Positions 2,808 through 56,457 are shown, counted from the stretch's first letter. The stretch is 64,000 nt of DNA from Candidatus Marinacidobacterales bacterium (GCA_965226495.1 OZ245365.1:6240001-6304000); one strand, 5' to 3'. Translations and numbers: made by a program. The notes: generated from the letters alone by a model not told the origin.

Positions 2808-2973
2808 GGTGCTTCCGCCATTAAGTGTTGGTGAGATGACGCTAAGACTTTACGGCGCATTAAATTACAGCCAAAATAGCGCTCGTGACCTTCGCTGCGC
2901 GCTAAATGGAGCGTAAGCGCCTTTTTTGCAAAGGGATGCGCACACATTATCAACAGCAAACAGCGCAAGCACC
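2808..2973 (+). mobile_element. 166-bp IS1-derived MITE, copy 2
   Basis: Direct repeat of 2138-2303. Confidence 0.85.
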
Positions 2974-5900
2974 GCATATCCAGAAACGGTGCCTGTCCCT
3001 CGGATCCCGCGGTCAGCGTCTAGTCGCCTTCGCCGTCACGCTGTCGGCGCTGCTGTCCGGCATCGCGGCGCCGCGGGTACACGCCCAGACCACCTGGGGA
3101 GTGGAGGTGTCGCCGACCACGCTGAGCATCGACGAGGGCGAATCTCTCACCTACCGCCTGAGACTGACTGAGCCACCCCTCGCCGACGGATGGTGGGTCG
3201 TGCTGCGCGTCAACGGCTCGATACGCTACGACGGCCACTATAGAGGAATCAGTTGGGTGCCGTCGGTCGGCTGGGAGTTCAATCGGGACAACTGGGACAC
3301 TTGGCGGGAGGTCAGGGTAACGGCGCTTCAGGACGAAGATGGATTGGATGGGTCGGTGACCTTCACCCACGACGTTTGGGATGAGAATGCCGATTGCCCG
3401 GTGAAGGGTGAGAGCCCGGTGACGGTGCGGGTCATCGACGACGACGATGACCGGGGCAGCAGCCTGCCCACCCTGTCCATCGCGGACGCGGCGGTGGCCG
3501 AAGGGGGCACGGCCGAGTTCGTCGTGACGTTGACACCGGCCAGCACCGAGACGGTGACGGTGAACTTCGAGACGGCGGACGGGACGGCCAAGGCAGGCTC
3601 GGACTACACGCAGACGTCGGCAACGCTGACCTTCACGGCGGGGCAACCGACGAAGACGATCTCGGTGTCGACGGTGGACGACGATGCCCAGGAGTCGGAC
3701 GAACGCTTCACGGTGACCCTGCGCAACCCGGACGGGGCCACGCTGGACGACCACACCGGGGAGGGGACGATCAGGGACAACGACGACGACGACGGTGGCG
3801 GCAGAACTCCGGAGCTGTCGATCGGGGACGCGGCGGTGCAAGAGGGGGGCACGGCCCAGTTCGAGGTGACGTTGAGACCGGCCAGCGAGCAGACGGTGAC
3901 GGTGAACTTCGACCAAGGCGGGCTCGGACTACACAGAGACATCGGGGACGCTGACGGGCTTCACAGCGGGGCAGCGGGGCAACCAACGAAGACGATCTCG
4001 GTGTCGACGGTGGATGACGACGCCCAGGAGTCGGACGAACGCTTCATGGTGACCCTGCGCAACCCGGACGGGGCCACGCTGGACGACCACACCGGGGAGG
4101 GAACGATCAGGGATAACGACGACGGCGGGGGCGGTAGCCTCCCGACCCTGTCCGTCGGCGACGCCGCAGTGGTCGAGGGAGACACGGCCACGTTCCGGGT
4201 GACGTTGAGCGCGGCGAGCGAGAACGTGGTGACCGTATCGTACAAGACGAAGGACGGAACGGCGGTTGCAGGCTCGGACTACACGGCGATGGCGGGGACG
4301 CTGCGTTTCGAGCCGGGCGACACGACGAAGACGATCCGGGTACCGACCGTGGACGACGACACGCCGGAGGAGACCGAAGCCTTCACCGTGGAATTGAGCG
4401 CCCCGTCGGGGGCGACGGTGGCCGACGGAACCGGGACGGGGACGATCAGCGACGACGACGGCGGGAGCCGCAGCCTCCCGACCCTGTCCATCGGCGACGC
4501 CGCGCCGGTGCCCGAAGGGCGCACGGCCAAGTTCAGGGTGACGTTGCGCAGAGAGAGCGGCGAGCCGGTGACGGTGGCTTACCGCACGGTCGACGGGACG
4601 GCGGTTGCGGGCTCGGACTACACGACGACATCGGGAACGCTGCGCTTCGAGCCGGGGGAAACGACCCGGGCGGTTGCCGTGGCGACGCTGATTGACCAGC
4701 TGATGGAGGGCGCCGAGCAGTTTACGGTGGAATTGAGCGACCCGGTGGGGACGACGTTGGCGGACGACACAGGGGTGGGAACGATCACCGACGACGTGGA
4801 GCGCCGCATCGGGCTGGTTAACCAGACCGTCCTTCCGGAGATAGGGCGGACGCTGGCTTTCAGCGCTGTCAGGTGTCGCAGCGATCAGGCGTTCTCGGAC
4901 GCCGCCCAGGGCAGGGCGGAGGAGCCGGTTGGCCGTCTGTCGCTATCTCTCGCGCCGACCTCCGACGGGTGGGCCGCGGCGGGCACCGAGCCGCTGACCC
5001 TGGAGCAGGCGCTCGGCGATTCGTCGTTCCTGATGCCGTCGAAGGAGGAAGAGGGCGGGGCGGGACGTTTCGCGGCGTGGGGCTGCGGCGACTACCGCAA
5101 CCTGGCGGGCGGCGGCGAGGACGGCGTGGTCGCTTGGAACGGCGAGGTGTTCAGCGTGCACCTCGGGGCCGATGTGCGGCTTGGTTCCGACGTGCTGGCG
5201 GGGCTGTCCGTATCCCGGTCGAGGGGTTCGTTCGACTACTACGCGGGCGGCAGAGACGCCGGGGGCGGCGCGTACGAGCTGCAGCTGACGGGCGTCCATC
5301 CCTACCTGGGCTGGTCGGTGTCGTCCGACCTGGACGTGTGGGGAACGGTCGGTCACTCCTGGGGAGAAATCCGGATCGTGGACGACCTCGCCGGGGATCC
5401 CCGGACGAGCGAGGCGATGCTGGACTCTGGAGCGGTAGGCGTCAGCGGTCGGCTCCTGGCGCGCGGGACGACGAGTGTGAAGCTGAAGGGAGAGGGGGCG
5501 CTGGCGCGGCTCGACGTCGCGGGCGACGGGGAGACGTTCGGGGCGGTGACGGTCGACATGCGGCGGCTGCGGCTGAGCACCGAGGCCAGCCATGAGCACG
5601 TGTTCTCCTCCGGCGGGTCGCTCACCCCGTGGGGAGAGCTGGGTGTGCGCCATGACGGCGGCGACGGAGAGACCGGCGCCGGCCTGGAAGTCGGCGGCGG
5701 CCTGCGCTACCAGAATCCGGAGGCGGGGTGGACCACCGAGGGCTACGGCCGCTGGCTGGCGGTGCATGAAGGCACGATACGGGAATGGGGCTTCGGCGCG
5801 CTGCTCCGCTTCGCTCCTGGAGCGTCCGGCCACGGCCCGTCGGTGAGCCTGATGCCGGCATGGGGCAAGACCACGAGCGGCGTGCAGCGCCTCTGGGAGC

Positions 5901-6169
5901 GCGGTGCCACCGACCCGACCGTGCCCAGCGCCTTGGGCACGCGCCTGGATGCGCAGTTCGGCTACGGGTTCGCGGCGTTTCGGGAGCGGGGCGTGCTGGC
6001 TCCCTTCGGAGCCGTGAGCCTGGTCCGCGAGGAAGGACGGAGCTACCGGCTGGGCGGACGGCTGGCGGTGGGCCACTCGGCCACCGTGAGCCTGGAGGCC
6101 GAACGCCGGGAGCGCCCCGCCGCGTCGGTGGTCTACGCGGTCATGGTGCGCGGCGACGTGCAGTTCTAG
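2906..6169 (+). CDS. Calx-beta repeat autotransporter / adhesin
   Basis: Signal peptide ending VHA-Q, four Calx-beta repeats (DGTA.AGSDY, G.GTI.DND), C-terminal beta-barrel ending VQF; the ORF start lies inside the MITE. Confidence 0.9.
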   Translation: MERKRLFCKGMRTHYQQQTAQAPHIQKRCLSLGSRGQRLVAFAVTLSALLSGIAAPRVHAQTTWGVEVSPTTLSIDEGESLTYRLRLTEPPLADGWWVVLRVNGSIRYDGHYRGISWVPSVGWEFNRDNWDTWREVRVTALQDEDGLDGSVTFTHDVWDENADCPVKGESPVTVRVIDDDDDRGSSLPTLSIADAAVAEGGTAEFVVTLTPASTETVTVNFETADGTAKAGSDYTQTSATLTFTAGQPTKTISVSTVDDDAQESDERFTVTLRNPDGATLDDHTGEGTIRDNDDDDGGGRTPELSIGDAAVQEGGTAQFEVTLRPASEQTVTVNFDQGGLGLHRDIGDADGLHSGAAGQPTKTISVSTVDDDAQESDERFMVTLRNPDGATLDDHTGEGTIRDNDDGGGGSLPTLSVGDAAVVEGDTATFRVTLSAASENVVTVSYKTKDGTAVAGSDYTAMAGTLRFEPGDTTKTIRVPTVDDDTPEETEAFTVELSAPSGATVADGTGTGTISDDDGGSRSLPTLSIGDAAPVPEGRTAKFRVTLRRESGEPVTVAYRTVDGTAVAGSDYTTTSGTLRFEPGETTRAVAVATLIDQLMEGAEQFTVELSDPVGTTLADDTGVGTITDDVERRIGLVNQTVLPEIGRTLAFSAVRCRSDQAFSDAAQGRAEEPVGRLSLSLAPTSDGWAAAGTEPLTLEQALGDSSFLMPSKEEEGGAGRFAAWGCGDYRNLAGGGEDGVVAWNGEVFSVHLGADVRLGSDVLAGLSVSRSRGSFDYYAGGRDAGGGAYELQLTGVHPYLGWSVSSDLDVWGTVGHSWGEIRIVDDLAGDPRTSEAMLDSGAVGVSGRLLARGTTSVKLKGEGALARLDVAGDGETFGAVTVDMRRLRLSTEASHEHVFSSGGSLTPWGELGVRHDGGDGETGAGLEVGGGLRYQNPEAGWTTEGYGRWLAVHEGTIREWGFGALLRFAPGASGHGPSVSLMPAWGKTTSGVQRLWERGATDPTVPSALGTRLDAQFGYGFAAFRERGVLAPFGAVSLVREEGRSYRLGGRLAVGHSATVSLEAERRERPAASVVYAVMVRGDVQF

Positions 6170-21896: not shown

Positions 21897-22015
21897 CGTC
21901 CTGTGCCAAAACTCGGCCCTTTTGAAATAGGCCATAAATCAGCAACTTAGCACACTGGCAAAAATTATTTCCCATTCTTGGATGGACGCAATGTGTAGTT
22001 CCACTTCGGCAGCGA
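21897..22015. mobile_element. Long-TIR end with an ISAzo13 end joined at CTTAG
   Basis: TIR 21897-21950, then sequence matching 25957-26012. Confidence 0.8.
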
Positions 22016-22076
22016 AGTGGGTCGTTGGATGTGTCCCGAGGTTCGTGGAAAAAGAACGGCACCCTCCACTCCGTCA

Positions 22077-22717
22077 TCAGGGTATCAGATCAGGCGGCAA
22101 ACCTCCGCGTGTTCGAGAACCTTGCTCAGACGTTGGCAGCCGTCGATGCGCCGTAGTTGAATCTGGCCAGAGGCCGATAAGCCCAAACAGCAAAGCGACC
22201 GCGGACTCCTCGCTGGAGAACGACGCTTGGGTTTTCGTCCGACGTCGAAACTCGCGGTTGAGATTCTCCAGAGCATTGGTCGTTCGAATCGATTTCCACA
22301 TGGCACTAGGAAATTCGTAGAAGGTCAGCAGCTGATTACCGGCCTCCTCTAGGCTTCGGACGACGGCCGGCGCGAGAGGCGTCCATTTGGCGACGAGCTC
22401 GTCATAGGCTTTGCGAGCATCGATCCCGTTCTTGGCGTAGACGATCCGGTTGTAGTCACGCCGGAGCTCACGGCGTGCGTGCGCCGGGCAATGTTCGAGC
22501 AAGTTGGCGCGCTTGTGCTCGGTACATCGCTGCAACCGGCACCCCGGCCACTTCTCCAGCGCTTTCGTCAGCCCCTTGTGGCCGTCGCTGATCACTAGCT
22601 TGGGAGCCCGGAGTCCTCGAGCCTGGAGTCCCTCCAGCACGGAGCCCCAATGCGTCGAGGCTTCGCTCACCGCCACACGCAATGACAACAGACGTTTCTG
22701 CCCGTCTGGCGCGACCC
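22077..22717 (-). pseudogene. IS256 family transposase fragment (second subtype)
   Basis: ISDGHKGL, QRCTEH, IRTTNALENLNREFRRR; 5' end cut by the TIR at 22718. Confidence 0.85.
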
Positions 22718-22766
22718 CGTCCTGTGCCAAAACTCGGCCCTTTTTAAAAGAGCCTCTCCTGCCATT

Positions 22767-24047
22767 TCAGTGGATCCTCTCGAGGGTGAGACCGCCACAG
22801 TTTAGGTAGACGAGACTGATGAGAGCTTCGGCAGAGTGGAGTCCAAAGCTGCGGTGGCTCAGCAGCCGGATTTTGTTGTTCATTCCTTGGAGTCGGCCGT
22901 TGCTGAGTCTCCACGTGACCCACGCGATGACGCCATCGAAGTGGCTGCGGATCATCTTCGCCGCGCGTTTGACGGGCTCTATCCTCGAGCTCATAGCGCG
23001 CCGCAGCCATCCTCGGAGAAACTTCTTGGCCCATGTCTCGGTTTTGTAGGTGTAGAGGTCCATGAAGTCGTCGCGCAGAAGCATGGCGCGGTAGAGGCGA
23101 CGATTAGCTCGCACCTGCTCGCGGAGCACCCGTTTGTCTTTCGCGCTGCGGTTGTGTTTGGCCTTGAGAAGGGGAAACTTGGTGTTCTTGAGGTTGCGTC
23201 GGGCAGTCCCTTTGAGCTCGCGCACCAGCTCGCGCCGGGTCTTATCCACGGCCTCGTTCAGATGCTTGACGATGTGGAAGCGGTCAAAGATCACCCGTGC
23301 CTGAGGAGCCTTTTTGCCGACGACAGTTATGTACGGCTCCCACATGTCCATGCTGACCGCTTCGAGCTCCGCGGCTCTTTGTGGTCCGAGCTTGCGGAAA
23401 AACCGCAGCAGCGTCTTGGCCTTGCGCTCCTTTCCCGCCCAGACGACCCGGCCGCTGAGATGGTCTATTACCACTGTTAAGTACTTGTGGCGTTTGCGGT
23501 AGCTGATCTCGTCCATCCCAATCACCCGCAATCCATCGAGCTCGCGCCGCTCATCCCGCTGCTCGGCAACCACTCGCTGGATGATCCGTCGCACCGAACG
23601 CCACGTCACTCGGAAATAGTTCGCTACGGCGCTGACGTCCGTCCTCTGTGCCAGCCACGCTACCTCTTGCTCGAAGCTTTTGGTAAAGCGGCTTCCCTTG
23701 TCGGCCCAAGGCACCTTTTCTCTGACCACTCCACACCGCCGACATACCACTCGTCGGATCGAGTAGCGAAGATAGGTCCGGACTCCGAACAGGTCCAAGT
23801 GCCGCCAGTAGCGATTGTAGCGATCTTTGTTCTTGCGGACCTTTCGTCCGCAAATCCCGCACAGAGGCTTCCTCCTCCGTGGTACTACATCCACCACCAC
23901 TCTGGCTTTGTCCGCCTGGAAGTGGAAACCTCGGACCCACAGGCCTTGCAATCCGATGAGCTTGTTGACTAACGTAGTAACGCGCATCGCGGGAACGCTC
24001 TTTTCTCTTTCGGAAAAAAAGATTCTAGCGTTCTCGCCGATGCGCAT
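22767..24047 (-). CDS. ISL3 family transposase
   Basis: Zn finger CGICG / CRRCG, GMDE, SMDMW, FDRFH, SNG..GMNNKI; likely start MRVTTL. Confidence 0.92.
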   Translation of the reverse strand: MRIGENARIFFSEREKSVPAMRVTTLVNKLIGLQGLWVRGFHFQADKARVVVDVVPRRRKPLCGICGRKVRKNKDRYNRYWRHLDLFGVRTYLRYSIRRVVCRRCGVVREKVPWADKGSRFTKSFEQEVAWLAQRTDVSAVANYFRVTWRSVRRIIQRVVAEQRDERRELDGLRVIGMDEISYRKRHKYLTVVIDHLSGRVVWAGKERKAKTLLRFFRKLGPQRAAELEAVSMDMWEPYITVVGKKAPQARVIFDRFHIVKHLNEAVDKTRRELVRELKGTARRNLKNTKFPLLKAKHNRSAKDKRVLREQVRANRRLYRAMLLRDDFMDLYTYKTETWAKKFLRGWLRRAMSSRIEPVKRAAKMIRSHFDGVIAWVTWRLSNGRLQGMNNKIRLLSHRSFGLHSAEALISLVYLNCGGLTLERIH

Positions 24048-24114
24048 CTACACATGGCTTACCCTCTCAACCCACGGGCCTCACCAAATGCCACTGCCCC
24101 TCAGCGGGAGACGA

Positions 24115-24425
24115 GGCTGTGGGAAACGCCCCCACGGTTCTGGTCGTTCAGACCTTGCTCACGACTGAGTTCTCTTCGAAGCCTGGAAGGGCGTTTTCCA
24201 TAGCCTCCACTAATCGAGCCCCCCCTTCCTTATTCCATATGAATTAATCTTTCTTGTATATATATCAGGAGGGGCCTGTGGGCGCTCGTGGGAAACGCGA
24301 AGCGTTTTCCAAGCGATTGTGGAAAACGCCGCTCCACGTTTGTACGTGCTCACAACCTTTCCCTAAACGCCTCTCTCGCCCGGAGTTTCCGGCGTTTTCC
24401 ACAATCGCGGCAGCGTCCATAGGCC
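24115..24425. repeat. Nested long inverted repeats
   Basis: 24115-24131 pairs with 24189-24205; 24313-24331 pairs perfectly with 24390-24408. Confidence 0.7.
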
Positions 24426-24469
24426 ATGCCCTCCAACACAAATCAGATCCCCCGAAACGACAGGAGAAC

Positions 24470-24885
24470 CGTATTTTTGGACACGACGGCCTTGAGGAAG
24501 GTGCTCCACGACATGCTCTTGCCCCGCTCCGGAGCCGACGCGATACCGTGCTCGGCGAGGAGCCTCTTGATGGTGTTGCGTCCAAGTTCATGTCCTAGGT
24601 TCTTGAGTGCGCCCCGCAGGCGCGTATATCCCCACGTCGGGTTCTCTCTCGCCACGCGTACAATGAGCTCACGGATATCCTTCGCCGTCGGAGGTCGGCC
24701 TGGGCTCCGGTTCTTGCTGCCATCGTACTTGGCTGCGATGAGGTAGCGGTACCAGCGCAGAAGCGTAGCGGGTGTGGCAACGGACGCAATCTGGGCCAGC
24801 GCCTCGCGGCCTAAAGCCTGGGACTTGACGGCGAGCCTACGCCGGTCGTCGTCAGAGAGCTTGAGACGCTTGCCCCGAAGCCCGG
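24470..24885 (-). pseudogene. Integrase-core IS transposase internal fragment
   Basis: Near-identical to 32280-32670; bounded by a CGTCGTGTCC end. Confidence 0.88.
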
Positions 24886-25691
24886 CGCTCGGGCCGCCGT
24901 AGCCGCCCAGGCCGAGGCTGCGCCCCACCGACAGGCCGACCGTGAGCGGACCCCGCCTGTAGTCGGCCCCGAGCATCGTCGTGCGCATGTCGCCGTTGAG
25001 CGACAGCGCCCCCTCCATGCCCCCGAAGTACGACCGGGAGCTGCGGCTCCATACCGACACGACCCCGCCGTGCTGCTCGCGGTTCAGCTCGAACTCCGAG
25101 TTGGAGAACAGGTCGCCGCCCGGCAGGAACGAGCCGAATCCGCCGCCGTGCACGCTGCCCGATGGCCCGTAGTCCGTCATGGCGGCCGCGCCGCCGGCGC
25201 CGCGGGAGCGAGGCTTCCGGGCGCGGTTCGCCGGCCGGGAATTCCGGCCGGGCATGGAACGGGACTTCGCGCTCGGCTTCCTGTCGCAGTTCGGGCAGCC
25301 GATGGGCGCAACCGCGATGGGCGCGAACCCGGTGGGCGCCGCATCAATGAGCGCTGCCTCGATGGGTGCGTCCCCGATGGGAGCACGCCCGTCCGGCCAC
25401 GGCGCCGCCATCCGCTGCTCGACGTGCTCGACCACCTGCTCGGCCGTCGCCCGCCCGAACCGCGCCAGCAGCGCCGCCGGCATCAGGTCCGCGTTCTCGA
25501 TCGTCCCGGTCGCCTCGGCGTCCTCCAGCCACGCCCCCGCCGCGTTCGACAGTGCGAGCACGAACGTCTCCTCGCCCTCGTCGTGCGCGTCGTCGAGCAC
25601 CGTGACCTCGATGGTCTTGCTCGACTCGCCCGCCTGGAACGTCAGCGTGCCGCTCGCCGCCCTGTAGTCCTCGCCCGCCTGCGCGCTGCCG
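24886..25691 (-). pseudogene. Calx-beta autotransporter fragment containing an internal inversion (25195-25407)
   Basis: Calx-beta ([17 protein letters not shown]), [12 protein letters not shown] linker and barrel start LGADY; both ends cut by IS. Confidence 0.85.
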
Positions 25692-25915
25692 TGTGCCTTC
25701 TATTTATTCATCCGGGCGCCCCAAACTTGATTAGTCTCCGGTCTGCCGGCACCATGCCTGCTTGATTTCGTCGTTTGGTCGCGCTCTCATCTCCGCCTTC
25801 AAGGCTCGTCGCGAGCTGGCTCTCGACAATGTCGCTCTTCGGCAGCAGCTCGCCGGCCTCCCCCGTTCGGTGAAACGGCCGCGGCTCTCGAACGTCGACC
25901 GCGGGTTTTGGGTAA
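25692..25915 (+). mobile_element. Integrase-core IS end plus N-terminal fragment
   Basis: RELALDNVALRQQL..RPRL...DRGFWV. Confidence 0.75.
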
Positions 25916-25965
25916 CTGTAGAGCCTAAGGGCCCTTGGCCCAGTCGCTAAGGACCGTGGCAGAAA

Positions 25966-26889
25966 TTATTTCCCATTCTTGGATGGACGCAACGTGTAGT
26001 TCCACTTCGGCAGGGAAGAGGATTTTTTGATGTTGAGTAGCGCCATCGCAGGGTCCGAGATTTTGATGCCCTTAGGATACTGCTTCTTGACGAGACGGGC
26101 GTTAACCTTGAGCCCAGTTTTGGTCTTGGTGGTCCGTATGAAGTTCAGGATGGTTTCGTAGCTATCGAGCGGCCGGCCCGCCCAATTCTTGCTAATCTCG
26201 CTGAACAGGCGGTGCTCGATTGGGTTCCACTTGGACGCACCTGGTGGATAGTGTGCGACCGTGACGTCCAAACCGTGCTCGTTGCACAGCTTGTGCTGGA
26301 TGCCGTGTTTCCATGCACGGCGGGTTGCGCCGTTGCTTCCGCCAGTGTCAGCTACGACAAGTAAATGTTTGCGGCCGGGAAAACGCTTCTGACCTTCAGA
26401 GCGCCACCACTTCTCGATGCATTCGACTGCGAATTGCGACGTGTCGTAAGACGTTCCGACATACACGGTGCCTCGATTACTCTGGAGATCATAGATGCCG
26501 TATGGGATTGCGACCCCATCTGCCATGGAGCGAAAGTCGTGGTCGTTGACGGCATCGCTCTTTTGAGCCCAGACGCGTCCTGGGTTCTTGAAGCGTCCGA
26601 CCAACTCTTTCTTCTTGGTGTCGACACTCAATATGGGATTGCCACGTCGGCTAAAGCGCTCCCGTAGCTGTGTGATGTTGGCGAACTGGGCGTCGCGAGT
26701 TGGAGGAGAGCCATTCGAGATCTTCTTTTTGTTGGTCCGGAGTGAGAAGTTCATCTGTTTAAGCAGCTTCGCGACGGTTTTGCGACTGACGCGAATGCCC
26801 AAGGCCGAGAGTTCGGCAGCTATTTTTTTCGTGGTCTTGCGAGTCCATCTCAGACCGCTGACGGGATCGCCAGCGACCTCGTACTTCAT
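25966..26889 (-). CDS. ISAzo13 transposase, DDE part
   Basis: GDP...LRWT, SVDTKKKELVG, ADTGGSNG, SKWNPIEHRLFS. Confidence 0.92.
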   Translation of the reverse strand: MKYEVAGDPVSGLRWTRKTTKKIAAELSALGIRVSRKTVAKLLKQMNFSLRTNKKKISNGSPPTRDAQFANITQLRERFSRRGNPILSVDTKKKELVGRFKNPGRVWAQKSDAVNDHDFRSMADGVAIPYGIYDLQSNRGTVYVGTSYDTSQFAVECIEKWWRSEGQKRFPGRKHLLVVADTGGSNGATRRAWKHGIQHKLCNEHGLDVTVAHYPPGASKWNPIEHRLFSEISKNWAGRPLDSYETILNFIRTTKTKTGLKVNARLVKKQYPKGIKISDPAMALLNIKKSSSLPKWNYTLRPSKNGK

Positions 26890-27689
26890 AAGTTCTTCGA
26901 TCGCCGCGATGACTTCTGGCGTTTTTTTTCGACAGCTTTGCGGCCGGCACCCGCTTTTCGGACCCGCTCCACATTCACATCATGCTCAAGTAGCTCGCGA
27001 CGGCCCCGAGCCACAGTGCTAACGTCGAGCCCGAGGATCTCCGCCATCTGGCGGTCACCGCCATAACCTAACTTGAGAGATTCAAGCCCCGCATACACAC
27101 GCCTTTCTCTCTCATCGAGCAGGCTAAAGAAAAGGATGATGGCTGCTTTGAGCTCATCGGGTAGGACGTCTTGAGCAGCAATACTCTTGGACACAGAGGG
27201 TTGCGCTTCCCAAACACGTCGGCTGGCTATTTGCTGTTCACGAATGCTCCTCTTCGGAGAGAAGTAGACATTGCGATTTCTAATCCGAGTGCGGCGAAGT
27301 CTTTTCTCCCAGGCCAATTTCGGCAGCACATCTTTGGTCCCAACCCTAACAATGGCATCAAGCTCCTCCACCGCGTAGCCAGCCTCGGAGGCGTTCACCA
27401 GTCCTTCGGCCGTGGCGACGAGTGTCCCTCGACTTGAAAAGCCGACGGACCGAATCCACCACAAGCCGTTCTCATCAAACTCCGCGAGCTCTCGGAGCGT
27501 GTAGAAACGTCCACGGTGCGAATAGCTGGTGCAGTAGTCGAGCTCTCTCAGTTTCCGGAACACCGTCAGGTCAGCGACAGTCCCCACTGTCTTCTTGAGC
27601 ATGTCCATGGTGGCGATGAGACGTTTGGCAAACAACCCCCGCAGGCGGTCAATGTCAGAGTTACGAATCATAATTCGTAACTCTAACAC
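26886..27689 (-). CDS. ISAzo13 transposase N-terminal ORF, probably frameshift-fused at an A8 run near 26922
   Basis: LDERERRVYAGLESLKLGYGG..TVARGRREL..RVRKAGAGRK. Confidence 0.85.
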   Translation of the reverse strand: MLELRIMIRNSDIDRLRGLFAKRLIATMDMLKKTVGTVADLTVFRKLRELDYCTSYSHRGRFYTLRELAEFDENGLWWIRSVGFSSRGTLVATAEGLVNASEAGYAVEELDAIVRVGTKDVLPKLAWEKRLRRTRIRNRNVYFSPKRSIREQQIASRRVWEAQPSVSKSIAAQDVLPDELKAAIILFFSLLDERERRVYAGLESLKLGYGGDRQMAEILGLDVSTVARGRRELLEHDVNVERVRKAGAGRKAVEKKRQKSSRRSKNL

Positions 27690-27868
27690 ACAATGACCTA
27701 CGTCTCCAGGGGCAAGCTCTCAAAGAGCTGCAAATAGCTCCATTTGACGCGGTCCCGCCAGGCGATCCGCTTCCCGCCGGCTCGGATCGTTATCCCTGCA
27801 GCAGATGAATTACGACAAAGACTTGGTAGTTATTCTTGCCCCGACCCTAAGGGCCCTTGGCCCAGTCG

Positions 27869-27922
27869 CTAAGCTGCTGATTTATGGTCTATTTCAAAAG
27901 GGCTGAGTTTTGGCACAGGACG
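27869..27922 (-). mobile_element. Solo long-TIR end
   Basis: Reverse complement of CGTCCTGTGCC...CTTAG. Confidence 0.85.
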
Positions 27923-27961
27923 AGAGTTCGATGACAACGAGCACATAGTAGGTCACGAGCC

Positions 27962-29161
27962 GGTGCTTCCGCCATCAAGTGTTGCTACGCGGCTGCGGGC
28001 AGTGGTTCAGGTGCGGAAGAGACCGGGTTGCGCGCCCCAGTGAGCAGGAAAACCTCGATCCGCGACCACAAAGGAATCGTCGTCGCCAAGAAGATGTCTC
28101 GAAAGGTGAGCCGTCGAATGGTCAGACCGGCCTGCATAGCCGGAGTTCGGATCTCACGTCCGAACTTCAGAGCTCCGTGCGGTCGGACGAAGTTGTAATA
28201 GCAACGGAGCAACTCCAGGTGCTCATCGAGCCTCTCCGTCGAGCGAGCGTGGGAAAGCGTTCGTCTCGAAAGGTATGCCGAGCTTTGCCGGATGGTCAGA
28301 TTCAACCGCTCGATGAACGACGTGTTCAATGTCGAGGAGTCCTCGGAGTTATTGAGCGCGTCTTCGAATCGCCACGCGGCTCCGTGCAGCGCTCTGCGTT
28401 CGACCTTGATGATGCGATCGTTCCTGCGCGTTTTGAGGACTTGGCCGTAAAGACACGCTGGCCCGAAGAAGCGACGGATGACCCTCTGGTAGAATTCGAA
28501 TCCATCCGTAACGATCAGGGGAAGACGCCCGAAATTCATCCGCTTCGAAAGGTCGCGAAACAGAGCGTGAGTGTTCCGGTAGCTTCGCCTTCCCGTCACC
28601 GTCGATGGCCAGAGCCGAGACCAGACCTCGATCGTAACGAAGACCCAACTCGGCGTCTTCTTGTTGCCCGCGAACGTGCGAATCTCGTCGGCTTGAAGCT
28701 CTTCGGCAGCGAAGCCAGCGATCCTTGTGTGGTTGAATCGACGACACACTTGGGCTGCCTTCTCAAGCCAGCGGGCGACGGTGTTCCAGGCAATCCCTTC
28801 GATCCGGGAAATCGAGGAAATGCTGACACCCTCGACTCTGAGAGCGATGACCCCGTCGAAAGTAGCTCTTCGATGTTGGAGACGGTAGTAGGGCGTGCCT
28901 TTCGTCGAGGAGGACGTCTTTCCGCACTCGCCGCACCGGTATCGACGGCGTTTCCCAGACCTGGTTCGGTAGAATCCGTGGCGAACGATGTTTCCGGAAC
29001 TGACTTTGCCCCGCAACGGACATGCGAGATTGAAACATCTGCTATTCTTCACTTCGGCTCGGCCCTGACGATGAGAGAACTGTGTCTTCGGAAATCAGGC
29101 TCAAACTCTAGCACGCGAGCGGGTTACGCGGCGGCCACCAACACTTGATGGCGGAAGCACC
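27962..29161 (-). mobile_element. IS1 family element
   Basis: 23-bp TIRs GGTGCTTCCGCCATCAAGTGTTG. Confidence 0.9.
27985..29052 (-). CDS. IS1 family transposase
   Basis: Zn ribbon RYRCGECG, HTH, QADE, VTDG, TSFIERLNLTIRQ. Confidence 0.9.
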   Translation of the reverse strand: MKNSRCFNLACPLRGKVSSGNIVRHGFYRTRSGKRRRYRCGECGKTSSSTKGTPYYRLQHRRATFDGVIALRVEGVSISSISRIEGIAWNTVARWLEKAAQVCRRFNHTRIAGFAAEELQADEIRTFAGNKKTPSWVFVTIEVWSRLWPSTVTGRRSYRNTHALFRDLSKRMNFGRLPLIVTDGFEFYQRVIRRFFGPACLYGQVLKTRRNDRIIKVERRALHGAAWRFEDALNNSEDSSTLNTSFIERLNLTIRQSSAYLSRRTLSHARSTERLDEHLELLRCYYNFVRPHGALKFGREIRTPAMQAGLTIRRLTFRDIFLATTIPLWSRIEVFLLTGARNPVSSAPEPLPAAA

Positions 29162-54795: not shown

Positions 54796-56457
54796 ATGAA
54801 GAAGATCCGCTGTGCCATCTATACGCGAAAGAGCGCGGAAGAGGGTCTCGAACAGGAGTTCAACTCCCTCGATGCGCAGCGAGAAGCCTGCGCCGCGTAT
54901 GTCGCGAGCCAGAAAGCGGAGGGCTGGGTGCTGCTGCCAACCGTCTACGAGGACGCGGGGCTCTCGGGAGGAACCCTGGAGCGCCCGGGCCTGCAGCGCT
55001 TGCTCGACGACATCGATGCCGGTCTCGTCGACCGGATTGTGGTCTACAAGGTCGACCGGCTGACCCGTTCCCTCTCCGACTTTGCGAAGCTCGTCGACCG
55101 GCTCGACGCGGCCAGCACCGGGTTTGTCTCGGTGACCCAGTCCTTCAACACCGCGACCAGCATGGGACGACTGACGCTGCATATGCTGCTGTCCTTCGCA
55201 CAATTCGAACGGGAGGTCACGGCCGAGCGGATCCGCGATAAGGTCGCTGCCTCCAAGCGCAAGGGACTATGGATGGGCGGCCGCGTACCGCTCGGCTATG
55301 AGAAGGACGAGCGCACGCTGCGCATCAACGAGGCTGAGGCCGAAACGGTCCGGACGCTCTATGCGCTGTACCGGAAGCACGGAACGCTCCGGCAGGTGAA
55401 GGCCGAGGCGGACCGTCTGAGACTGCGCACCAAGCAACGCTTCGCCGCGGATGGAACCCGGACAGGCGGGCTGCCGTTCCGTCGCGGACACCTCCACTGC
55501 CTGCTGACCAATCCTCTCTACGCCGGCCGCATCCGGCACCAGAGGCGTGTCTACGAGGGCCAGCATCCATCGATCATTGCTCCGGAGCTCTGGGACGCGG
55601 TCCAGGCGCAGCTGCAGGCAGGGGCTGCCAAACCAAGGAGACGCACGACGAAGGGCCGTGCAGCCCGTTCCCCACTGGCAGGCAAGCTCTTCGACGAGAC
55701 CGGGGACCGGCTGACGCCGAGCCACACCAAAAAGAAAAACGGGCAACGGCTCCGCTACTACGTCTCCCGGCGCCTCATCCAGCACAGTGGCCAAAAGGAC
55801 CTCTCCGGCTGGCGACTGCCCGCCCCGATGCTGGAACAGACCGTCGTGCATCTCATCCGACAGCATGTGGATGCCACGACCTTCTCGGCCTCGTTGATCC
55901 ACACTCCGACGATGCAAGAGCTCGCCTCGGTGCGTCGCTTTTTAGACGGGCTGTGTTCCGGTAGTAATGATGATAGTGCCTCGGCAGCCCCCCTGCTCCG
56001 TCTTATCCGGCGGGTCGATATCAGCCCCGGCTCTGTGTCCATCCTGCTCGACCGCAATGCGTTCGCTGCTTGCCTCTCTATGGGACCCGACCGCATTCGC
56101 GAGGATGCACTCCGCATCCTCGCACCGTTCCGCTTGCGTCGACGCGGCGTCGAGACCAAGCTCGTTCTGGGCAACCCCACGAAATCCGTCGACCGCACAC
56201 TCCTGCGCAATATCGCCAACGCCCTCTCCTGGCTCGACCGAATCAAAGCAGGCAAAACCTATGAGCAGATTGCCACCGAAGACGCCATCCCAACGGACCG
56301 CGTGCGCAAGGCAATCCGTTATGCCTTCCTGGCTCCCGACATCGTCCGCGCCATTGTCGAAGGCCGCCAGCCCGTTGGGCTGACCTCGAGCTACCTCTTG
56401 CATCATCCGCTTCCCGACGATTGGGAGAAACAGCGAGTGCTCGTCAAAACGCTGTGA
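54796..56457 (+). CDS. Large serine recombinase
   Basis: CAIYTRKS, SLDAQRE, YKVDRLTRS, FAQFERE, WMGGRVPLGY. Confidence 0.93.
   Translation: MKKIRCAIYTRKSAEEGLEQEFNSLDAQREACAAYVASQKAEGWVLLPTVYEDAGLSGGTLERPGLQRLLDDIDAGLVDRIVVYKVDRLTRSLSDFAKLVDRLDAASTGFVSVTQSFNTATSMGRLTLHMLLSFAQFEREVTAERIRDKVAASKRKGLWMGGRVPLGYEKDERTLRINEAEAETVRTLYALYRKHGTLRQVKAEADRLRLRTKQRFAADGTRTGGLPFRRGHLHCLLTNPLYAGRIRHQRRVYEGQHPSIIAPELWDAVQAQLQAGAAKPRRRTTKGRAARSPLAGKLFDETGDRLTPSHTKKKNGQRLRYYVSRRLIQHSGQKDLSGWRLPAPMLEQTVVHLIRQHVDATTFSASLIHTPTMQELASVRRFLDGLCSGSNDDSASAAPLLRLIRRVDISPGSVSILLDRNAFAACLSMGPDRIREDALRILAPFRLRRRGVETKLVLGNPTKSVDRTLLRNIANALSWLDRIKAGKTYEQIATEDAIPTDRVRKAIRYAFLAPDIVRAIVEGRQPVGLTSSYLLHHPLPDDWEKQRVLVKTL

Follow-up and report, generated by a model that had tools for sequence, protein, structure and literature searches.

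A gene remnant with an inverted middle

The window (the whole 64,000-nucleotide stretch of DNA that was analysed, from a Candidatus Marinacidobacterales bacterium, GCA_965226495.1 OZ245365.1:6240001-6304000) contains an 813-bp remnant of a gene for a probable Calx-beta surface protein, set between insertion sequences and delimited by its DNA homology to six loci (L014-L019) found in a scan of species-representative genomes (Table 1). The coding sense of a block in the middle of this remnant lies on the plus strand, whereas both gene flanks read on the minus strand. Read on the plus strand, the block gives RERGF...RPSGH, the ancestral sense, and its minus-strand reading, WPDGR...KPRSR, is the antisense of it. 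Both ends of the block carry the self-complementary octamer CGGCGCCG; a palindrome is its own reverse complement, and the two copies therefore form an 8-bp inverted-repeat pair, which can be extended to 11 nt with one mismatch (91% complementarity). Turning 25195-25407 around gives the same DNA as turning 25203-25399 around.

Table 1. Features of the remnant and of the insertion sequences around it (window coordinates).
Feature	Position	Strand	Remarks
ISL3-family transposase gene	22767..24047	-	Pfam PF01610, E 6.5e-69
IS481/IS3-like transposase gene, N-terminal piece	24443..24892	-	Pfam HTH_21 and HTH_32; NCBIfam IS481 and IS3 partial matches
Remnant of the Calx-beta / C-terminal beta-barrel (probable) surface-protein gene, 813 bp	24880..25692	-	DNA homology to L014-L019
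Downstream flank, in sense	24880..25194	-	Rest of the Gly/Ala/Met-rich linker, then the C-terminal beta-barrel region for roughly its first 90 residues
Palindrome CGGCGCCG, breakpoint 2	25195..25202		Ancestral-order CAC GGC GCC GG (His-Gly-Ala-Gly); joints 25195/25202
Inverted block, 197 bp (213 bp including both palindromes)	25203..25399	+	Ancestral coding sense now on the plus strand
Palindrome CGGCGCCG, breakpoint 1	25400..25407		Gene-sense codons GCG GCG CCG (Ala-Ala-Pro); opposite-strand joints 25401/25407/25408
Upstream flank, still in sense	25408..25692	-	End of the Calx-beta domain and a predicted helix
Other IS481/IS3-like insertion sequence, 5' end	25692..25951	+	Points away from the remnant
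ISAZ013-type DDE transposase gene	25966..26889	-	Pfam PF07592, E 1e-119; cuts the neighbouring insertion sequence

Both octamers fall inside one minus-strand stop-to-stop frame of 418 codons (24443..25699), and the plus-strand open frame over the block runs from 25203 to 25400 (66 residues). Translated in the present and in the flipped orientation, a stretch of 273 codons contains no stop either way. The positions of the octamers, the readings on the two strands and the stop-free flip had been described in an earlier reading made from the sequence alone, and all three proved exact when the sequence and its translations were checked again.

That reading had also considered the gene to be cut by insertion sequences on both sides, which is what the comparison with related loci bears out: family homology stops at 24880 and at 25692 (the latter being its end in three of the loci, L015, L017 and L018), and there are insertion-sequence ends on either side. 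The stretch 24893-25685 is single-copy in the genome. On the left side, 24480-24892 has at most three other genome copies, with the two longest matches ending at 24886 and 24892; on the right side, 25692-25951 has up to eight, most of them beginning at 25692. The right-hand element is also present in a fuller copy (L040), whose 348-aa frame scores below the cut-offs of the IS481 and IS3 transposase models that it matches. The transposase genes around the remnant (window 22000-28500) also include a Mutator fragment, and the nested, truncated elements (ISL3, ISAZ013-type, Mutator and IS481/IS3-like) look like an insertion-sequence graveyard, about 140 kb in extent. Copies of the flanking elements are almost confined to the two ends of the single contig (1-23 kb and 6.218-6.337 Mb), with one further copy at 1.35 Mb.

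Compared with P0008, a 974-aa protein that is the closest among the homologues listed, the remnant is without at least 330 N-terminal and about 360 C-terminal residues, and it has no start, no signal peptide, no passenger and no complete barrel. Translated, the remnant begins within a Calx-beta domain, of which the last two thirds survive, and continues through the helix and the linker into the barrel region for about 90 residues. The host gene is thus, as judged from its sequence, a dead gene. The transposase piece is fused in frame to the remnant, and the product is annotated as a 385-aa protein (P0124, with a GTG at 25600); this open reading frame is a sense/antisense/sense/transposase chimera and most likely has no role.

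The remnant has a GC content of 70-75%, against 59.1% for the genome. No DNA match to it was found in the seven other genomes of the same family (one of them, G007, unpublished), and the 55 genomes of its own order gave weaker matches only. The closest DNA relatives (91-94% identity, and 99% over 85 nt) are found in a different and larger order. Given the GC contrast and the placement of these relatives, the remnant is probably horizontally acquired DNA that was trapped between the ends of insertion sequences.

The protein family

The Calx-beta assignment of the sequence-only reading is well founded, with a match to Pfam PF03160 of 53.6 bits against a cut-off of 27 (E 2.9e-14) over frame residues 3-68; this match covers profile positions 47-116 of 119, which is the C-terminal part of one domain. 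The word autotransporter, used in the same reading, is plausible, and it comes without a family-model match: the C-terminal region of about 430 residues gave no match to PF03797 or to any NCBIfam model at E <= 0.1 in three whole homologues, and a search for PDB sequences matching the C-terminal region of the family found none at E <= 1. A language-model search with the C-terminal 505 residues of a homologue offers a lead, as 29 of the 30 neighbouring clusters carry PF03797 (score 0.95).

An AlphaFold model of the C-terminal region of a homologue, built on a nine-sequence alignment, was poor (mean pLDDT 42.7), and the block can therefore not be placed in a fold. At this low confidence, the model has a helix at ARFGR...MAAP, and the linker behind it is unstructured and leads into a long series of strands. 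With the same poor model, Foldseek retrieved outer-membrane barrels of a generic kind (TM 0.2-0.5); porins head the list, and EstA, EspP and Hbp come further down. The layout of the homologues (passenger, helix, barrel and a final Trp) fits an autotransporter architecture. The family is probably one of Calx-beta surface proteins with a predicted C-terminal outer-membrane barrel, of the autotransporter type.

The linker is variable and of low complexity in this family, and probably disordered. The block contains a conserved motif of 26 residues with several invariant positions (R30 and G33 in the alignment).

Two further observations were made on proteins of this kind. Residues ~860-974 of P0008 depart from the family consensus, which ends in ...RRES....G.P.H.V....T..W, and this suggests a frameshift in the C-terminal tail of the P0008 record. 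Elsewhere in the window, at 2906-6169 (+), there is an apparently intact open reading frame of 1087 aa and 70.7% GC with three Calx-beta stretches and a match to the Pfam autotransporter beta-domain (30.6 bits, cut-off 26); it resembles the family of the remnant in its Calx-beta part only, with a different linker and barrel.

Ancestral orientation of the block

The orientation of the block was compared with that in homologues at the protein and DNA levels. Against nine homologous open reading frames, the plus-strand reading of the block was matched in all nine by blastp (E 8e-11 to 3e-31), each time exactly between the sites matched by the two minus-strand flanks, whereas the present minus-strand reading had no significant match in the same nine (best E 0.007). 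Long open reading frames in three relatives of the same order were likewise matched by the block protein (G035, E 3.2e-8; G034, E 4.2e-8; G026, E 3.0e-5), between segments colinear with the minus-strand flanks of the window, and the DNA of G035 has the same strand pattern.

The six loci L014-L019 are closer, being 71-77% identical over the block, and in all of them flank, block and flank are continuous in one frame and un-inverted. By blastn, each of the six resolves into three pieces of the window: 24880-25195 on the minus strand, 25195 to ~25403 on the plus strand and 25401-25692 on the minus strand. In the five genomes with these loci, every one of the 16 block pieces is on the other strand from the flank piece next to it, and 15 of them belong to complete three-piece loci. 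The pieces abut or overlap at 25195 and at 25401-25403 with no extra letters; alignment pieces and contig joints (see below) meet within the two palindromes, where the earlier reading had put the breakpoints.

Among the best 120 of 1244 database homologues of the remnant, which were the ones compared, the plus-strand reading was matched in 115 and the present reading in none, with a colinear arrangement in 112; the five without a plus-strand match are distant and have little similarity beyond the Calx-beta flank. In P0008, the upstream flank is 97.9% identical (P0008 residues 332-428), the block 92.3% and the downstream flank 97.0% (P0008 residues 510-610). With the block re-inverted by script, the window's protein is 89.9% identical to P0008 (6 mismatches), compared with 73.0% (41 mismatches) as it stands, and about 20 linker residues of P0008 are absent from the window directly after the block.

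The proposal that the flipped form is the ancestral linker is therefore upheld by the nine open reading frames, the six loci and the 16 block pieces alike, and no homologue examined favours the present orientation. Paralogues with the same boundaries, which had also been suggested as a source of evidence, do not exist in this genome, since the plus-strand block matches itself only (next E 1.31).

Repeats, open frames and chance

The homologues also indicate where the palindromes come from. At the left junction, they read ATG GCG GCG CCN and then, across the joint, CGG GAG; at the right junction, they read TCC GGC CAC GGC GCC GGT. The octamers arise as a by-product of codons for Ala-Ala-Pro and for His-Gly-Ala-Gly. 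Among L014-L019, a perfect octamer stands at the left site in L017 only and at the right site in L016 and L018 only; none of the six has both, and the pair of sites is therefore not conserved in the family. The direct ancestor of the copy in the window happened to carry both octamers.

Neither the repeats nor the open frame exceeds what chance alone provides. CGGCGCCG has seven copies in the window, where 6.68 would be expected, and seven or more copies were obtained in 49 of 100 shuffles. Between 24800 and 25800 there are 29 inverted-repeat pairs of at least 8 nt, one of which is a perfect 11 nt, so that the presence of an inverted-repeat pair flanking a segment wholly inside one frame is at chance level. 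It was correctly pointed out in the sequence-only reading that the gene stays in frame in both orientations, and this carries little weight. The downstream frame is kept because an inversion in place leaves the length unchanged, which is trivial, and the read-through without a stop is due to the frequent lack of stops in the antisense of GC-rich coding DNA: in the register concerned (offset two), 36% of 7995 windows of 66 codons in the nine homologous open reading frames were free of stops. Neither feature is evidence of design. The homology signal of the block is, by sequence comparison, far above chance, unlike the repeats or the open frame.

Orientation in independent assemblies

The orientation of the block was followed in contigs (not raw reads) of four runs from four studies; contigs drop rare variants. 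In X16, one contig (24857-25522) crosses both junctions with zero differences from the window. In X15 and X19, both junctions are spanned by overlapping pairs of contigs, again with zero differences (25108-25289 with 25265-25430 in X15, and 25107-25283 with 25280-25430 in X19). The fourth run, X17, contributed a contig of 1554 letters (depth 2.15) that is ~98% identical to the window over 24941-25665 and has the same inverted order. In this contig, the 829 letters past 25665 (upstream in the sense of the gene) are unlike the window, and the inverted form may thus also exist in another, possibly longer, context.

At the protein level, the present linker reading was found among proteins of 229-732 aa in a single cluster with four variants, located on contigs of 630066, 202302 (two contigs), 5835 and 6337479 bases and inverted in four out of four. 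The three full-length variants (P0121, P0122 and P0124) have the same fusion to the insertion sequence as the window. P0121 differs by one substitution and P0123 by a frameshift, and the variants are therefore not copies of one record. The frameshift of P0123, just after ...SFLPGGD, matches a one-letter deletion at 25111 in one X16 contig, and is a further decay of the remnant.

Un-inverted joints, reported as joints between opposite strands, were also seen, at 25195/25407-25408 and at 25202/25401, with seven letters that fit either side. Where they can be judged, the contigs that carry them differ from the window by 8-10% (17 of 204 positions in record 26 of X19, and 16 of 169 in record 13 of X16), and the X19 joint contig of depth 13.3 carries a variant at 25246, as judged from depth sums. 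Apart from one further X19 contig (depth 19.4, joint 25202/25401), which is not among the listed pieces, the contigs with un-inverted joints look like relatives in the ancestral order. Joints away from the palindromes occurred as well, at 25138/25335 and 25298/25299 in X15 and at 25263/25405 in X19 (depth 2), and were taken for relatives or chimeric contigs.

Nothing in this material points to switching: wherever the comparison could be made, contigs with the un-inverted form differ from the window. Contigs leave room for rare flipping; flipped molecules of the same strain would be missed if they were few.

Recombinase genes

No match to the phage-integrase family (tyrosine recombinases) was found in the window, and the nearest match to the resolvase family (serine recombinases) lies 29 kb from the site, at 54814-55269 (+). 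The latter sits in an open frame of 560 aa, that of a large serine recombinase. A second resolvase-family copy, which is split, lies ~8 kb before the start of the window and ~33 kb from the site. In the whole genome, the phage-integrase family has seven matches and the resolvase family five, of which three are short frames or parts of split genes. No recombinase appears assignable to the site from these data.

Origin of the inversion

The arrangement is very probably the product of a one-off inversion through short inverted repeats in a pseudogene, now fixed, and not a working switch. The intact ancestor would have had passenger domains ending in Calx-beta, followed by a helix, a Gly/Ala/Met/Pro-rich linker and a C-terminal outer-membrane beta-barrel. 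The 197 bp between the copies of CGGCGCCG were turned around, probably a single time, with no bases gained or lost. The mechanism would be an exchange inside the repeats, which could have been a template switch across the replication fork or a break followed by microhomology rejoining; no dedicated enzyme would be needed. The event may have been neutral because the gene was already dead, or may itself have killed the gene, and the inverted state would subsequently have become fixed in this lineage. We infer enzyme independence from the non-conserved repeat pair, the lack of an adjacent recombinase gene and the fixed state, and we likewise take the inversion to have occurred a single time and to have been neutral.

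An inversion that happened earlier, in an intact donor or ancestral gene where the new linker was tolerated or useful, with transfer and truncation by insertion sequences following later, is unlikely. The X17 contig, with the same inversion followed by upstream letters unlike the window, would be consistent with such a history, and a variable, low-complexity linker might tolerate replacement. The antisense reading replaces the conserved motif of 26 residues, a change that would probably not be neutral if the protein were functional. The present linker, which none of the best 120 homologues has, is confined among proteins of 229-732 aa to the window's own cluster, and among 42 candidates of 733-2090 aa it was found in none at E <= 0.001, which is weak evidence. 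A profile-free search of 1.84 billion protein representatives with the present reading (E <= 0.001) gave six matches: the own cluster, four short open reading frames (P0125-P0128) and one unrelated repeat protein. In P0125-P0128, the antisense continues through the flank, as in gene calls made on the opposite strand of un-inverted homologues. At the DNA level, a 161-nt probe centred on the junction had a match in 25 of 401 sampled genomes of the nearest relatives' order (two candidates scored per genome), and none of the 41 listed matches crosses the junction, as all of them begin at or after probe position 74. The exact 26-mer of the inverted junction had no match in JGI metagenome contigs, where the block protein gave 599 pattern matches, none of them confirmed.

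A relative of the X17 type, with the inverted linker in a longer and perhaps intact gene that is still flipping or has fixed the segment as a new linker, is distinctly improbable.

The sequence-only reading had left a choice between a recoding intragenic inverton and a microhomology-mediated inversion, and of these the short-repeat inversion fits and the inverton is unsupported. In the latter, a recombinase encoded elsewhere would flip the segment at the two CGGCGCCG sites and so produce two linker isoforms in a programmed manner. Short inverted repeats at both ends and a frame that is open either way are what such an element would have, recombinase genes are present in the genome, a minority orientation could go unseen in contigs, and known cases have ~11-nt repeats and no adjacent invertase (PMC10028968). 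Against this stand the single orientation at full identity (in the four runs as in the four protein variants), the confinement of the other orientation to contigs that differ from the window, where judgeable, and the distance of 29 kb to the nearest recombinase gene. Two isoforms would serve no purpose in a dead remnant of 813 bp that has lost its start, its passenger and part of its barrel, and the present reading is plain antisense without a homologue, of the same kind as the antisense open-reading-frame calls P0125-P0128. Furthermore, the six homologous loci have a perfect octamer at one site or at neither, and no match among those listed from the 401 genomes spans the junction. A programmed inverton is thus very unlikely.

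Finally, a segment mis-oriented during genome assembly, the artefact against which the earlier reading had warned, is scarcely conceivable even though small palindrome-bounded inversions could in principle come from mis-joined reads and the assembly may derive from one of the four runs, as the same order runs over both junctions in four runs of four studies (in three of them without any difference) and in four non-identical protein variants on contigs of other assemblies (with the P0121 substitution and the P0123 frameshift).

Comparison with described inversions

The preferred reading, a short-repeat inversion in a pseudogene, makes the locus one more instance of a mutation type already known. 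Inversion of a spacer between short inverted repeats in coding DNA has been described in yeast as an outcome of template switching (Abraham & Hazkani-Covo 2021, PMC8604942). The inversions described there resemble the present one in their arms of ~8-11 nt, in an exchange inside the arms without gain or loss of bases, in their location within coding DNA with a block of changed residues, and in that no dedicated enzyme is needed. The spacers documented in that report are of 2-5 bp, from a search restricted to spacers of at most 70 bp, and the spacer inversions it describes alter at most two residues; here, in contrast, the spacer of 197 bp lies outside the range shown there, 66 residues are swapped for an antisense reading, and the host is a bacterial pseudogene remnant, hence unfiltered by selection.

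Intragenic invertons are defined, in the preprint of Chanin et al. (PMC10028968), by orientations that coexist in a clonal sample, and are taken there as invertase-mediated. The validated example described in thiC has 11-nt repeats, and short repeats are therefore no argument against an inverton; the invertases were not pinned down in that work and need not be adjacent. Loci that are 100% in one orientation may, according to the same source, have ceased flipping. The present block is like the invertons described there in lying wholly in frame between short inverted repeats and in being recoding, with no stop introduced; it is unlike them in its single orientation in all near-identical sequences seen, its truncated host and its unconserved repeat pair.

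The nearest comparison is with Calx-beta/beta-barrel proteins from Acidobacteriota-labelled metagenome-assembled genomes (P0008 and L014-L019, the latter titled 'Vicinamibacterales bacterium'). These share the linker motif with the remnant, and their flanks are at the identities given above in DNA and 95-98% identical in protein. They are whole and un-inverted, with frames of 703-1502 aa in L014-L019, whereas the copy in the window is cut down to 813 bp, inverted in its middle and shorter in the linker than P0008.

Implications

As it stands, the biological weight of the finding is small. It provides a clean natural inversion of ~200 bp between 8-bp self-complementary motifs, which was preserved because the DNA is under no selection. 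For inverton scans, it is a caution that a dual open frame together with short repeats is to be expected by chance in GC-rich genes, and inverton calls therefore need comparison with homologues and evidence from reads. For annotation, the caution is that a called open reading frame, here one of 385 aa, can be a chimera of sense, antisense and transposase parts.

Should both orientations appear in reads, or should an intact gene with the inverted linker be found, the locus would be a case of large-block recoding in a surface protein from outside the group in which such events have been described, the gut Bacteroidota. If an intact gene of the X17 type were to exist, 66 residues of an outer-membrane protein would have been replaced at once by an antisense reading.
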